Of a stretch of DNA of 25,190 nucleotides, positions 1-6,000 are shown piece after piece (positions within the stretch are counted from its first letter, which is position 1; every line of letters starts with the position of its first letter). A program made the position numbers. The stretch is from a virus (lineage: Duplodnaviria; Heunggongvirae; Uroviricota; Caudoviricetes), in the IMG/VR virus record IMGVR_UViG_2695420597_000002; one strand, 5' to 3'.

Positions 1-3000
1 CAGCTGATAGAAACAGAAGCCACTGGAGCACCTCAAAAACACCATCATACACTAAATCAGTAAGTTGGCAGCATCACCAGCCTTCTTGAGGCTACCACCT
101 GTTTTCAGGTGTCATTCAGACGTGATTTGCCCCAGATTGGGAAAGCACGCTTTTTTCTCAGCTATCGTCCTCTTATTTTGCCGTTACATTTCTTTTTGCA
201 TTCTAATGATTAATTTACAATAATAATATCGGTAATTATTGAGTAATAATAAATTAATTATTGCAAATGTAATTTAATTCCATCTTCGCGTTATATTCCA
301 ATCTTTAATCTCCGCATGGAACAAGTTGCATGCGTGACTATATTAAGACGACTTATAACCACCAAAACATTTGCTTTGCAAGCAAAAACAGTGACCATTG
401 ACTCTAAGAAAATTCCGATCTATTGTTAGGGTCATCAAAGTTACTTAACAGTATTCCGAAATGAAAATACAAAGCAAGCTAATTGTCTTATTAAACATTA
501 TTATTGCATTTATATTATTTGAGCTTTTAGCTCAAAAATTTGGTTTGAGTACATTATTTTAAAGCAAGATAAACAATATCGGGCACTCTAGTTTTTATAA
601 TTAACAATTAAACGTCCATAAAATGTTATTTACTTTTCTTCGCTATTGTCATATCTTAATATAGTGGCTTACGCCACTCTACTTTCATCACATTTTGTAC
701 GTTTATGTACTCGCCATGAAGCTCTTTCATGGCGATTTTTTATTCTTAATCCAAGAACATACTCCCTACCTATAGCAAAATCACTTTTTTAACAAAAGAA
801 TAACGTATTTAGGTAATCATTACGAATTTACCCTATAGGTGCTACTGGCCATTCAATATCCGGTGCAGTTGATGTATCAACACGGTTCAGCAACACCCGA
901 TACTTTTTCCAAGCTTCCAGCAACAAGGTTTCTTTCTCCGTTGCGATCTCCAGATCCACAGCATCCTGAAGCGGCGCTATATGCTCACTGGCTACCTGCA
1001 TCAGGCTGTTTTTTGTTTCTTCCGCCTCCCGGATCCGGAACAGTTTTTCTGCTTCCGTATCCTTCACCCAGGCTGTGCCGTTCCACTTCTGAAACTCCCC
1101 TTCCGGGGATAACCAGGTGACATTTTCCGGTAATGAGCCGAGTTCAGAAATAAATAACGCGTCGCCGGAAGCCACGTCATAAACCGTTTTACCCCGATGA
1201 TCTTCAACGAGATGCCACGATGACTCATCACTGTTGAAAACAGCCACGAAACCAGCCGGAATATCTGGCGGTGCAATATCGGTACTGTTTGCAGGCAGAC
1301 CTGTATGAGGCGGAATATATGCGTCACCTTCACCAATAAATTCATTAGTTCCGGCCAGCAGGTTATAAATTTTTATGGTCCGTGCTTGTTCACTCATTCT
1401 GAATGCCATTATGCGAGCCTCACAATATAGTTAAATGCGATGTTTTTGACGGTGTTTTCCGCGTTACCAGCAGCGTTAACGGTGATGGTGTGTCCATGTG
1501 AACCAATCGCAACAGAGTGCGTATGAGCACCAATACCGACAGTATGCGCGTGTGCACCCGCAGATGCTGCTGTGCCGGACAGTGAGTGTGTATGGTTTCC
1601 TTCTGAAGATGATTTACCTACCCATTGGGAGGTGCCACTGGTTAATGAGCCACTGATACCAACCTGATTAGTCCCGCTAACTTGAGTACTCCCTGCCGGA
1701 AACATTCCAGTAGGTTGACTCCCGCTATTCGTTCTGGGCCCAGTCTGACTATGTTGGTGGGCCCCAGCTGAACTTGTAGAGCCGCTCAGACTGTGCGTAT
1801 GCGCCCCGGTGTTATTCGTGGATTTAGTGCCGTAATCAAACGACGATGTGGTTTTCGTCCCCAAATCCGTACTGGATGCGCTGGCGCTGTGGGTGTGCGA
1901 TTTAATGCCATCCTGTTCCTGAGACAATACGGCACGACCACTGGCGGGCTTGCCCTTAATCGTCCAGCCACGCATATCAGGGATCACGCCTGACGGATAA
2001 GCGGCTGCAAGTTTCGGGTAAGCAGATTTGTCAAAAGTCTGCCCCTGCATCAGGGCATAACCAGACGGAACGGTATCTGATGGCCACGGGATTGGTGCAC
2101 CGACTGGATAAAACTCTGCAGGAGGATGAGCCGAGGTGTAAAGCTGCGCCCACGGCGACCAGTTTGCGTCGGTCGTATCCCGTCGTGAACGAATAAATGC
2201 CGGAGCATGAGCACCGCTTGTACCACTCCAGCCGATGAGTAACTCACCTTCGCCAACGGCTGTCATCCCTTTCAGGTGAATGATATTTCCATACGCTGTT
2301 GGATATCCGTTGTTATACACCTCGTATAACTCAAGACCTGCTGCCCCCTGCGTATTGTCTGTCAGCGCGGCTACCCGACCTTTTGAAGCCAGATTAACTG
2401 ATGATACTGCTGTTCCACCTGACGGTAGCGCCCCGATCTCTGATGCCGTTGGCTTATTTCTGGAGTTATAGTCCCTTCGCCAGCCAGGTGAATAATCTGT
2501 TCCGTGATTAATATAGGTAAACTGGGCGTTGGTTGTTCCGCCACCGCTGGATGTGGTCGGAGTGGTAATGCGGATCGTCATCGCTGACTTTATCCCCATT
2601 ACTTCAATGACAGCTCCGGCGAGATGAATATTACCGCAGCCAGTATCAGTAATGATTTTATTATTGCCATAAGACCAGGAACCCTTGCACATCCAGTATG
2701 GATGGTTAAATGCTCCCTGAGAATCCAGCCACTCGATAAACTGTGCAGTCGTCCAGTTTCCTGTTGTTGTGCTTACTGACCCACCGAAGGCACGGCAGGC
2801 ACCAATATTTTTCGTAAAGGTGTCTTTGCCAGGGATATCCGCACCGTTCTGATCTTTCTGCAGACGTTTCTCAGCATTGTCATTGGCTGCTTTTACTGCC
2901 TTTGGCGTTGCCGCCAGCGTTTCAGACGTGCTGTTGGTCGCGCTGCTTAGCTGGATTATCCCTTTCTGTGCTGTCGTTGCATCCTGTGCGGTGTATTTCC

Positions 3001-6000
3001 CGTTAGCCAGGTCATACGCGGCCTTAACGGCTTTTGGTGTTGCCGCCAGTGACTCGGAAGTGCTGTTAGTCGCACTACTGAGCTGTACTATCCCCTTTTT
3101 CGTCGTGCTCGCATCCTCAAGCGCCACGGCGGATGCAATATCCTCTGCCCGTTTTGCCGCTGTCTCAGCGCGCGTTGCTGCAGATTCCGCCGTACTTTTG
3201 CTCTGAGCTGCTGCCGTCGCACTACCAGCAGCCTCTGTCGCCTTCGTGGATGCCGTCGTGGCGCTGCCCTTCGCTGCTGACGCCTGTCTGGTCGCCTCAT
3301 CTTTTGAAGCAGACGCCGATGATGCCGATGACGCCGCCGAACTGGCGGACGATGCGGCAGCCGTTTTTGAGGATTCTGCACGGGTTTCCGACGCTTTCGC
3401 GTTCGTTTCGGATGTCTTCGCTGCGGAAGCTGACCTCGCTGCTGCCGTGGCCTGCTCAGTGGCTTCGCCAGCCTTCGTTGTGGCTGTTGAAGCGGATGAT
3501 GCGGCGCTTTCTGCCGATTTTCCGGCGGCGGTGGCACTGGCTGAGGCCTGCCCGGCACTTGTTGACGCGGCGCTGGCAGACGACGCAGCCGCTGTTTTTG
3601 AGCCTGCCGCAGCTGAGGCACTCTGTCCCGCTGCCGTTTCAGAAGACCTGGCGTTCGTCTCGGACGTTTTGGCCGCCTTCGCAGAATTTGCAGCCGCCGT
3701 CGCCGAGGAAGCTGCGCTACTGGCGCTTGATGATGCGTTCGTTTCTGATGATTTTGCCGCCTCTTTTGAAGCCGACGCATCCCGGGCTGAGGTGGCAGCT
3801 TCTGACGCTTTCGTGGTCGCGGTGGATGCAGAAGTGGCTGCTGATTGTTGTGACGCTGCCGCATTCGTTTCTAACGTTTTCGCCGCACCGGCACTGGTAG
3901 CCGCCGCGCTTTTTGAGGACTCTGCAGCGGCAGCACTTTTTGAGGCTTCAGTGGCCTTTGTTGATGCCGTTCCTGCGCTGGAAGACGCTGACTGAGCCGA
4001 CGAAGCGGCCTGTCCGGCTGACGTGCTGGCTGCACGTGCTGAATCTGCAGCATCAGTCGCATGGGTTGCCGCCTCACGGGCTGATGTGCTGGCATCGCTG
4101 GCTGATTTCTTCGCGGCTGCCGTGTTCTGTGCCACCGCGGACGCGTTACGCGCCACCTCTTCCACCATCAGCTCAAAACGGCGCAGTGCCTCCGGACGGG
4201 CATCATCCTCCGTCATGGCACCGAGAAAATCATTCAGCGTACCGGGTCGGGAATCTTCATACACGGTGATGGTCCCGGCATGTGACGGCGGGAATCCTTC
4301 CACCAACAGAATAACGCTGTACTGACCGTACTCAACGTCCATGCTGTAACGCCCGGCTTCATCCGGATTTTCTGAGGCCAGCGTGTTCACCACCACCGTG
4401 GTGCTGTTACGTTTTGCTTTCAGCTGGATTGTGCAGTTCTGTACCGGTTTTCCTGTGCCGTCTTTCAGTACACCTGAAATCTTTACTGCCATATTCACCC
4501 CACAAAAAAGCCCGCCTGAACCGGCGGGCTGTCATAACACTGTGTTACCTGGCTAATCAGAATTTATAACCGACACCCACGATGAAACCGTCAGTGCGCC
4601 AGAGACGTGTTGCTGTGGCGACCGTCATCACTTCCGGTCAGCACATCGTGCGTTTTCCCCTTATTGTCAGTTACGCGGATATAATCCCCGGAAAAAGTCG
4701 ACACACGGCTGTAAGCCACACCCGCCATCGCATACGCGCTGAACCATTCATTCACGCGCACAGACGGCCCCGCCATCACGCTGAACCAGCGGTTACGCAC
4801 GGAATCTTCATGCCAGCGGGTATCGCTGTAACGGGTCAGCTGGCGATTCTTGTCTCCTGCATAGCTGAATGACGTCACCAGCCCCAGCGTATCCGTAAAC
4901 TCATAACGGTATTTCACGTTAATCCCGTTCAGATCATCACTGCCGGGAACGTTGGTCCGGGCATGAAGATACCCCGCGCTCAGCGTGGACTGATGTTCAG
5001 ACGCCCATGCAGGCGCACCGGATACGGCCAGACAGATGGCTGCGGACAAAATGGCTGCACAAACTTTACGCATAATTACCTCTCGCTTTTCTGCAATAAA
5101 AAAGGCGTCATTCCTGACGCCATTTATTGGGGTTATAAATATTTCAACGAATACTGATGCCGGAAGCCGCTTTTTTGGTCACAATCACCGTACAGTCGGT
5201 GATATTGCCTGCCCCCTGATTGCCTTTCTGGAAAATCTTAAACTCCAGAGTGACGCTACCACCACCACTAGGCATATCAATAACTGCACTGTAACTACCG
5301 GGAATGGCACCTTTAGTTTCTCTGGATGCGATTAATACGCCGTTTTTGCGAACTTCAAAACCATAACCCGTGTATCGCGTGCCTCCTGGGTTATTTCCGC
5401 TCCCCGGATCGTCATACGCTATACCGTTAAAAATAATGGGCGGAATAATAATCTGGCGGTCAAAGTTATGATCATCGCTTATGGTGACTGTAACCGTCCC
5501 GTTTGGTGTTTCCGTGTTACCCCACGTACCAGCCTGTTTCGGAAATGATTTGGATACAGCTTTAACGAAGTCACCTCTGACCTGAGTCGCCTCCAGCATG
5601 CCCTTAATCGTACAGTTTTCATTTACCGTGACATTGTTGAGCGTCCCGGCGTTCGCATTCACACTGCCACTGATATCCGCATTTTTAGCGGTCAGCTTTC
5701 CGTCCGGAGTCAGGGAAAATGCCGATGGATTTCCACCGCTGGTAATGGTGGGGGCCGTCAGGCGTTTCAGGAACACGTCGTTCATGAATATCTGATCGCC
5801 CTGACCAACAAACATCGGTTTTGTGTTGCCATTCGCAGGATTAACCATCGCAATCCTGTCCGCCGCCAGCAGCACCTGACTCTGCATGCCGTCAGGGGTG
5901 TTCTCAATACCGGCACCAATACCCGCGATATAAAGGCGTCCGTCCTGCATCTGCTGCAGCTTCACAGCCCACATGCTGTTCAGGTTATTATTTGTATCAA

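Follow-up and report, generated by a model that had tools for sequence, protein, structure and literature searches.

Modular architecture of a lambdoid side tail fiber gene with an Ala/Ser shaft and two PF03406 units

The DNA analyzed here, hereafter called the window, is a 25,190-nucleotide record of a Caudoviricetes virus (IMG/VR record IMGVR_UViG_2695420597_000002). It carries a side tail fiber gene, stf, whose product includes a long tract rich in Ala, Ser, and Thr as well as a tandemly repeated module. Do such repeats make the gene prone to recombination and thereby underlie host-range variation, as originally predicted, or are they regular parts of a known type of fiber? We consider it very probable that stf is an ordinary, intact lambdoid side tail fiber gene built from five known modules. 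Each module has a close relative, in most cases with a solved structure, and judged from sequence no new biology appears to be needed.

The stf-tfa locus and the tail-docking domain

All features described below lie on the minus (-) strand. The stf gene (1409..4492) encodes 1027 amino acids from an ATG at 4492, which agrees with the original gene model. The reading frame is open across 1409..4498, and an in-frame GTG is present at 4498, two codons upstream of the ATG. Immediately downstream is tfa (828..1409), whose start overlaps the stf stop and which codes for a 193-amino-acid tail fiber assembly chaperone (PF02413, E = 4.6e-44). Both reading frames are full-length and lack internal stops. 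On the basis of ORFs and Pfam matches, the gene order at the end of the tail operon is J–lom–stf–tfa, and six relatives are annotated likewise.

Pfam matches within Stf comprise PF08400, two copies of PF03406, and PF07484, whereas NCBIfam searches with the whole protein and with its central module returned no match. Matches to PDB sequences cover residues 1-94 (9e7m), 490-723 (8ju3 and 5yvq), and 794-1027 (2xgf). The description of Stf as a mosaic is therefore sound, as its modules match parts of lambda, P1/Mu, and T4 proteins. Five features of a lambda-type Stf were found, namely PF08400, the J–lom–stf–tfa order, a long helical coiled coil, a PF03406 hinge, and a collar with an HxH needle accompanied by Tfa. 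The Stf of Ur-lambda forms trimeric fibers that bind OmpC and speed adsorption through this outer-membrane receptor (PMC12617516). By homology, three Stf chains are predicted to form one fiber, and the Tfa chaperone encoded downstream would help the tip to fold.

The N-terminal tail-docking domain (residues 1-94; 4211..4492) is homologous to the collar domain of Ur-lambda gpStfN, which spans residues 1-91 in the structure paper (PMC12617516). PF08400 extends over residues 1-134 (E = 1.4e-71) and the Ur-lambda Stf chain 9e7m aligns with residues 1-94 (E = 1e-51), in keeping with the lambda-like N-terminus that had been proposed. This domain presumably docks on the tail tip, at the junction of tube and tip.

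The Ala/Ser shaft and the PF03406 units

Residues 105-456 (3125..4180) consist of about 50 uninterrupted heptads of the form xAxxSAx, and Ala, Ser, and Thr together make up 70-80% of residues ~115-450. Fourier power at a period of 3.5 residues is 43.6, compared with a maximum of 10.3 in 200 shuffled sequences, and the signal at a period of 7 is likewise far above the shuffles. The register is well kept, with Ala at position 1 in 47 of 51 heptads, Ser at position 4 in 36 of 50, and Ala at position 5 in 35 of 50. A single-chain AF2 model (mean pLDDT 67.8) predicts helix over residues ~98-475; this model is informative for helicity only, since its chain reversals and PF03406 units are of low confidence. 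The tract aligns with residues 102-393 of lambda Stf, which have been described as a proximal coiled coil (PMC12617516). Periodicity, register, predicted helix, and the length conservation described below identify residues 105-456 as an Ala/Ser-core proximal coiled-coil shaft rather than low-complexity noise. Thus, the low-complexity tract of roughly 400 residues noted originally is real in its composition, but it measures about 350 residues and is strictly periodic. Because the core is formed by Ala and Ser instead of the usual Leu, Ile, and Val, the oligomeric state is assigned by homology to lambda. The coiled coil would provide a rigid proximal shaft of ~52 nm (at ~0.148 nm per residue), which is ~15 nm longer than that of lambda.

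A rival reading, in line with the original prediction, is that the tract and the tandem module are hot spots for recombination or slippage, whose expansion and contraction would alter Stf length and hence host range. We judge this to be very unlikely. The suggested comparison of stf lengths across relatives proved informative, as 10 diverse alleles range in total length from 964 to 1120 amino acids and yet the tract between its anchors spans 357 residues in nine of them. The exception is lambda, whose tract is shorter by exactly 105 residues. This clean difference of 15 heptads is one of the observations that favor expansion and contraction. However, coverage of the tract is 100-101% in all of the best 120 database representatives. 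The longest exact DNA repeat in the tract is only 11 nucleotides, equal to that of a non-repetitive control segment and below the mean of 12.1 for codon-shuffled sequences. Searches with TRF detected no tandem array in the tract, only three tiny matches with scores of at most 50. We therefore reject a tandem DNA repeat array, or contingency locus, in this region. The tract is the most length-conserved part of Stf and its DNA is non-repetitive.

The tandem module presents a different picture. Two 44-residue units, corresponding to residues 462-505 (2978..3109) and 506-549 (2846..2977), match PF03406 (Phage_fiber_2) with a combined E of 6.2e-37, and the second runs into a 17-residue linker resembling that of Mu Sc. 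The DNA copies (2879-2985 and 3011-3117) are spaced by 132 nucleotides, and so the tandem module was correctly recognized. These copies are 74% identical over a 107-nucleotide core but only 58% identical over the whole 132-nucleotide period, with 27 of 44 residues shared and no more than 11 nucleotides of exact in-register identity. A recent tandem duplication is rejected on the strength of the 58% identity, and the repeats are two old, diverged members of a curated repeat family.

By alignment, the hinge of lambda Stf, assigned to residues 394-422 in Ur-lambda (PMC12617516), is a PF03406 unit, and the two units in our protein would likewise form a hinge region. Copy number does vary among alleles, with one in lambda, StfR, and the Z1323 allele, two here and in SE11, and three cores in an O78 allele. 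In addition, one-copy alleles resemble nucleotides 1-23 of copy 1 fused in register to nucleotides 24-132 of copy 2, which supports exchange inside the PF03406 unit. Thus, the idea of repeats as recombination hot spots has modest support for PF03406 and is contradicted for the Ala/Ser/Thr tract. As to host range, PF03406 copy number alters the geometry of the fiber and not its receptor-binding tip, and the variation between otherwise identical alleles is concentrated in the tip segment.

The central module, the tip, and the origin of the allele

The central domain (residues 550-793; 2114..2845) had been noted as unlike lambda Stf, and alignment confirms this. It is homologous to Sv', the variable part of the invertible tail fiber genes of P1 and Mu. 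The match to 8ju3 has an E of 1e-85, P1 Sv' aligns with 95% of the module at 73% identity, and the translated Mu G segment, which provides the actual Mu Sv' sequence, also matches. A domain of this type would form the distal shaft.

This homology raises the prospect that stf belongs to an invertible switch of the Gin/Cin/Pin type, with two C-terminal segments exchanged by an invertase as for S and S' of Mu and P1. The module begins where Mu Sv' starts, just inside gix, and a Pin-type serine recombinase is encoded downstream of tfa in PhiR68_2, Z1323, and Rac. However, the window contains no gix-like site at three or fewer mismatches to the Mu gix sequence, and matches to the gix core motif occur at chance level and outside stf. 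The peptide encoded by Mu gix, IQNLGLQETVNQ, is absent from the window, and the NGADIP motif occurs once, compared with twice in Mu S'. Neither an invertase nor an inverted alternative stf'/tfa' segment is present among the window ORFs. Downstream of tfa, the sequence up to the window edge consists of 750 nucleotides of non-coding, AT-rich DNA and an IS1 end. Even in the relatives, pin lies within ~100 nucleotides after tfa, too close for an alternative segment to fit in between. Compared with the Mu G, P1 C, and e14 P segments, our locus therefore shares the Sv' homology but has neither the crossover sites nor the invertase with an alternative gene pair. An invertible segment or a relic gix site in the window is rejected by comparison with the real Mu G-segment sequence, and we consider a switch extremely improbable. 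The preferred reading of an ordinary lambdoid fiber accommodates the Sv'-type domain as one of its modules.

Residues 794-1027 (1412..2113) form a collar (PF07484) and a T4 gp37-type needle (2xgf, E = 1e-81). Seven HxH motifs are present at residues 866, 898, 912, 967, 981, 990, and 999, and these features together with the characteristic 11-residue C-terminus bear out the proposed lambda-like tip. The gp37 needle has seven iron sites, and its function depends critically on tip residues 929-949 (PMC6957217). By analogy, the collar and needle of our protein would be held together by seven HxH metal sites and end in a variable tip. This hypervariable segment (residues 905-975; 1568..1780) corresponds to the part of T4 gp37 that contacts the receptor, and it would contact the outer-membrane receptor. 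It is 100% identical to the tip of a 983-amino-acid allele class and only 36-45% identical to those of two-unit alleles, even though such alleles are otherwise 97-100% identical. Host-range variation therefore likely maps, as far as sequence comparison can indicate, to this segment and to swaps of the whole central module, and not to the repeats that had been proposed to underlie it.

Two proteins, the Stf of phage PhiR68_2 (PV340576; 1023 amino acids) and that of Escherichia coli SE11 (WP_000279143; 1024 amino acids), are collinear with ours from end to end (95% identity, three to four gap positions) and contain no extra modules. Collinearity of this kind is essentially what the original proposal had named as its refutation, although "already characterized" fits the modules and the lambda, T4, and Mu proteins and not this exact allele class. 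A literature search on the PhiR and mEp460 phages yielded no paper characterizing their Stf. Other close relatives are found in PhiR26_1, mEp460, and Salmonella phage SPF_0923. Of 5426 complete E. coli genomes, 636 hold a close match with at least 80% coverage, and so this Stf type is common in the species.

The module comparison and the DNA mismatch profile together support a recombinant origin for the allele. The crossover, between a 5' part of SE11/PhiR68_2 type and a 3' part of Z1323 type, is placed within 1893..2293 (gene nucleotides ~2200-2600), an interval defined by few informative sites and four comparison alleles. It thus appears to lie in conserved sequence near the collar and not in a repeat, which also argues against the repeats as hot spots. 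The allele probably arose by homologous recombination of two prophage alleles that are common in E. coli, one supplying a 5' part with two hinge units and the other a tip of the 983-amino-acid, single-unit type. The tfa gene is 94-97% identical to those of all relatives, too uniform to tell its parental source. Experiments have quantified recombination of lambda stf-tfa with the Rac and Qin prophages (PMC3945230).

The exact Stf sequence, from either the ATG or the GTG start, is absent from about 15 billion proteins, and the exact allele is absent from the 5426 complete E. coli genomes. Elsewhere, its tip occurs only on 983-amino-acid fibers with a single hinge unit. An unrecorded recombinant with an SE11-type body and a 983-amino-acid-type tip is a trivial novelty. 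A more ambitious proposal, which we hold to be rather doubtful, is that the allele is a recent natural hybrid displaying the same receptor-binding tip on a doubled-hinge fiber, with hinge copy number tuning the reach or flexibility of the knee.

The state of the surrounding prophage bears on the activity of stf rather than on its identity. The tape-measure gene H no longer forms one reading frame: two ORFs lie in different frames, and the gene falls ~85 nucleotides short of its length in intact phages, a defect deduced from lengths and frames. The lom gene is truncated by an 83-nucleotide frameshifting deletion, and the IS1 end abuts the locus. The decaying lambda-like prophage thus appears defective. 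Because H is frameshifted and lom truncated, the locus may never supply a virion with this fiber. It is possible that stf is intact but idle, with no tails made, so that Stf matters only as a recombination donor allele like Rac stfR. Phages have been shown to acquire stf-tfa DNA from prophages that are themselves defective (PMC3945230). However, stf and tfa remain open, and the remaining head and tail gene series is apparently present. Moreover, the window covers 25 kb, and lysogeny and lysis modules or helper prophages may lie beyond it. We regard the arguments for and against an idle gene as evenly balanced.

Comparison with known side tail fibers

The locus matters little beyond annotation. 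It illustrates that lambdoid side tail fibers are interchangeable modules joined at conserved linkers, with junctions at the PF03406 core, the NGADIP linker, the collar, and the HxH flanks. Phage engineers have used the same junctions to retarget lambda particles (PMC11338833). Two useful corrections follow: the "low-complexity" tract is a structural shaft of conserved length and not a variable region, and a 70-residue segment of the tip holds the variation relevant to specificity. The one-hinge and two-hinge alleles with identical tips might also serve as a natural control for the role of the hinge. Should the flexibility or reach of the knee depend on hinge copy number (1, 2, or 3), and with it adsorption across surface layers of different thickness, this pair would constitute a natural isogenic test.

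The closest counterparts are the Stf proteins of PhiR68_2 and SE11, which share the N-terminus, the 50-heptad tract, both PF03406 units, the Sv'-type center, the collar, and the needle. Their DNA is nearly identical to ours over gene nucleotides 900-2500, and they differ only in the tip segment. The 983-amino-acid class (E. coli Z1323HEC0016, WP_338933567; annotated as "prophage tail fiber N-terminal domain-containing protein") has the same central module and identical DNA from gene nucleotide ~2600 to the end. However, a single PF03406 unit takes the place of two, making it exactly 132 nucleotides shorter.

Ur-lambda Stf (774 amino acids; 9e7m, PMC12617516) resembles our protein in its docking domain, its shaft in the same register, the PF03406 hinge, the collar, the HxH needle, and the 11-residue C-terminus, and its gene has the same J–lom–stf–tfa setting with Tfa encoded downstream. 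Its shaft is shorter by 15 heptads (105 amino acids), one full PF03406 unit is present, the Sv' module is replaced by a shorter distal domain of another kind, and its tip segment differs. Rac StfR of K-12 (1120 amino acids) matches residues 1-565 at 89% save for a single 44-residue gap, with an identical tract length and the same scaffold of collar and needle. It has one PF03406 unit, an unrelated, larger central domain (~350 amino acids), and a different tip segment.

The S' proteins of P1 and Mu (8ju3, 5yvq) share the PF03406 unit, the DNAxxRLxKDxNGADIP linker, and homology over the next ~185-250 residues. Unlike those systems, our locus has no gix or cix, invertase, or alternative segment, and its Sv' module is internal and followed by a T4-type tip, whereas it forms the fiber end in P1 and Mu S'. 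T4 gp37 (2xgf) has the same collar, six-stranded needle, and seven HxH metal sites. The tip subdomain of our protein is different in sequence and longer, and its chaperone is a lambda-type Tfa (PF02413), whereas T4 has gp38.

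The stf gene and its modules

The stf ORF occupies positions 1409 to 4498 of the window on the minus strand, and from the ATG at 4492 it codes for a side tail fiber protein (Stf) of 1027 amino acids. On the same strand are the genes for J, the central tail fiber protein (5144 to 8641; 1165 amino acids), lom (4591 to 5073), and tfa (828 to 1409; PF02413, E = 4.6e-44), and the ORFs and Pfam matches place these genes in the canonical lambdoid order J, lom, stf, tfa. The lom gene carries an 83-nucleotide deletion between two CTGGCG direct repeats, with a frameshift just before the last beta-strands, and its product has 160 amino acids versus 199 in relatives. 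Beyond tfa, the window holds about 750 nucleotides of non-coding DNA (35% GC), lying between an IS1 terminal sequence at approximately 1 to 77, where relatives annotate an IS1A transposase, and nucleotide 827. A Pin-type serine recombinase, found 3′ of tfa in phage PhiR68_2, in E. coli Z1323HEC0016 (hereafter Z1323), and in the Rac prophage of E. coli K-12, is absent from the window.

Stf matches PF08400 (E = 1.4e-71), two PF03406 units (E = 6.2e-37), and PF07484 (E = 7e-12), and its predicted features are not due to chance. The original prediction described a lambda-like N-terminus, an Ala/Ser/Thr-rich stretch, a 44-residue unit occurring twice in tandem, a center unlike that of lambda, and a tip with repeated HxH motifs (seven by our count), all of which are present.

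A sequence search against all PDB chains matched each globular part of the protein. Residues 1 to 94 match the 94-residue 'Tail fiber protein' chain of 9e7m (E = 1e-51), equivalent to the N-terminal collar domain of Stf as resolved on Ur-lambda virions (PMC12617516). For residues 794 to 1027, the match is 2xgf, the receptor-binding tip of T4 gp37 (E = 1e-81). The seven HxH motifs of Stf parallel the gp37 needle, which has seven iron sites and whose function-critical residues sit between HxH motifs (PMC6957217).

The central domain, which the original prediction left unplaced, matches the phage Mu tail fiber S/S′ chains 8ju3 (E = 1e-85) and 5yvq over residues 490 to 723, and thus it is a module of the Sv′ type, the variable part of the invertible tail fiber genes of P1 and Mu. 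In tblastn searches of phages, this module has 73% identity over 95% of its length to P1 Sv′ (the C(-) orientation segment) and also matches S′ of D108 and Mu, while its first half matches P2-like H proteins. Translation of the actual Mu G-segment record reveals that the gix inverted repeat encodes IQNLGLQETVNQ, and the window module begins at the Mu stretch just after these residues. The window includes no gix-like site, no invertase, and no alternative segment. We therefore rejected an invertible switch and consider the module to be fixed.

The Ala/Ser/Thr-rich tract and the PF03406 units

Residues 105 to 456 form about 50 uninterrupted heptads with the pattern x-A-x-x-S-A-x, wherein Ala occupies heptad position 1 in 47 of 51 cases, Ser position 4 in 36 of 50, and Ala position 5 in 35 of 50. 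The Fourier power of Ala at period 3.5 is 43.6, compared with a maximum of 10.3 among 200 shuffles, and the tract is more than low-complexity sequence. An AF2 single-chain model (mean pLDDT 67.8) predicts helix over residues ~98 to 475, with low-confidence helix breaks at points where the lone chain folds back. The homologous lambda residues 102 to 393 constitute a trimeric 'proximal coiled-coil domain' that is followed by a 'hinge' at residues 394 to 422 (PMC12617516), and by alignment this hinge is the PF03406 unit. Three long overlapping ORFs (249 to 258 amino acids) in alternative and antisense frames also cross the tract at 3088 to 3995, on both strands. These are most likely compositional artifacts of GCN/TCN/AGC-rich coding sequence, because three of the five alternative frames of the tract have only one or two stops.

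The original prediction held that repeats in this tract are a recombination hot spot, which proved to be wrong. Measured between the anchors MVEEVA and KGIVQL, the span comes to 357 residues in the window, StfR (the Stf of Rac), Z1323, E. coli SE11, the O78 allele, and phages Turner, 2H10, Chlobot, and PhiR29_1, in proteins whose total lengths range from 964 to 1120 amino acids. Lambda alone differs, by exactly 105 residues or 15 heptads with the register kept. The tract is the length-conserved portion of Stf. Its DNA is not repetitive; the longest exact repeat is 11 nucleotides, as in a distal segment of the same length (codon-shuffled mean 12.1), and TRF found no tandem array in it. The direct-repeat families are 60 to 87% identical, and their spacing is mostly in multiples of 21 nucleotides because of the heptad rather than recent duplication.

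The hot-spot proposal is modestly right for the PF03406 unit, whose copy number is one, two, or three among natural alleles. One unit is present in lambda, StfR, Z1323, and several phages, two in the window Stf, SE11, and PhiR68_2, and three cores in O78. The window copies lie 132 nucleotides apart, with 74% identity over a 107-nucleotide core, 58% over the whole period, and no more than 11 nucleotides of exact in-register identity, and they are two divergent copies from a curated repeat family and not a recent duplication. In Z1323 and StfR, the lone unit corresponds to copy 1 over nucleotides 1 to 23 and then to copy 2 over nucleotides 24 to 132; Z1323 matches this join at every position, and in StfR a few dispersed positions depart from copy 2. 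Thus, one-unit and two-unit alleles differ by exactly one period, with the junction inside the unit core. The data fit deletion or insertion alike.

The O78 allele (L007 4409 to 7324; E. coli O78 strain 3, NZ_CP084096) codes for a 971-amino-acid Stf with the 357-residue tract and three PF03406-like cores. This strain shares the tfa gene, AT-rich spacer, and IS1 arrangement of the window, with 98.3% identity over window positions 1 to 1409.

Origin of the allele and state of the prophage

Relatives of this stf are common. Of 5426 complete E. coli genomes, 5174 give a megablast match of some kind and 636 give one with at least 80% coverage, and the isolated phages PhiR68_2, PhiR26_1, mEp460, and Salmonella phage SPF_0923 align over 94% at 97 to 98% identity. 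The Stf proteins of PhiR68_2 (1023 amino acids) and SE11 (1024 amino acids) are collinear with the window Stf at 95% identity with three to four gap positions, and these protein alignments reveal no extra module in the window Stf. Full-length collinearity of this kind is what the original prediction named as evidence against itself, provided that the other Stf was already characterized, and our literature search found no paper characterizing these particular fibers.

The tip has a different affiliation. Among the best 120 representatives from a search of 5.8 billion proteins, the tip segment (residues 905 to 975) occurs at 99 to 100% identity in 34 proteins, all of 983 amino acids with one unit, and the two-unit proteins all carry other tips with 36 to 45% identity to that of the window. 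In a DNA mismatch profile, the window stf hardly differs from SE11 and PhiR68_2 over gene nucleotides ~900 to 2500 and is identical to Z1323, a member of the 983-amino-acid class, from nucleotide ~2600 to the end. Thus, the allele is a recombinant with its crossover between gene nucleotides ~2200 and ~2600. Near-collar sequence in this interval is conserved among the compared alleles, and the collar itself is common to lambda, StfR, and T4.

The description of Stf as a mosaic was accurate. The exact protein, from either start codon, is absent from ~15 billion sequences, and the stretch from copy 1 to the tip occurs in one piece in no complete E. coli genome searched. The novelty is confined to the allele. 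Direct measurements show that lambda and defective prophages exchange stf-tfa DNA (PMC3945230), and references within that paper describe tail fiber mosaicism since 1989-1994. In Z1323, the closest single-hinge relative, the tfaQ-annotated assembly gene (L001 4452 to 5019) is marked as frameshifted, and its fiber chaperone may be defective though stf is intact.

The tape-measure gene H (11044 to 13520, minus strand) is split into two ORFs of 414 and 366 amino acids that do not share a frame. As judged by lengths and frames, the region is about 85 nucleotides short relative to intact phages, for example PhiR63_1 and phage 21. H appears to be disrupted, which points to a defective prophage, and the frameshifted lom and the IS1 end add to this picture. 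The intact stf gene might therefore contribute chiefly by donating its allele, as stfR does in Rac.

Proposed fiber and its known counterparts

The module identities, heptad register, conservation, and breakpoints are observed here, and by homology we infer a fiber in which three Stf chains would dock on the tail tip via residues 1 to 94. The Ala/Ser-core coiled coil might then extend ~52 nm (352 residues × 0.148 nm), an estimated ~15 nm longer than in lambda. The fiber would bend at the PF03406 hinge region, run through the Sv′-type domain, and end in an iron-stapled needle. The variable needle tip presumably binds an outer-membrane receptor, and Tfa would help the tip to fold. Lambda, Mu, P1, and T4 together account for every Stf module, and the protein is an ordinary and very common lambdoid side tail fiber, all parts of which are known.
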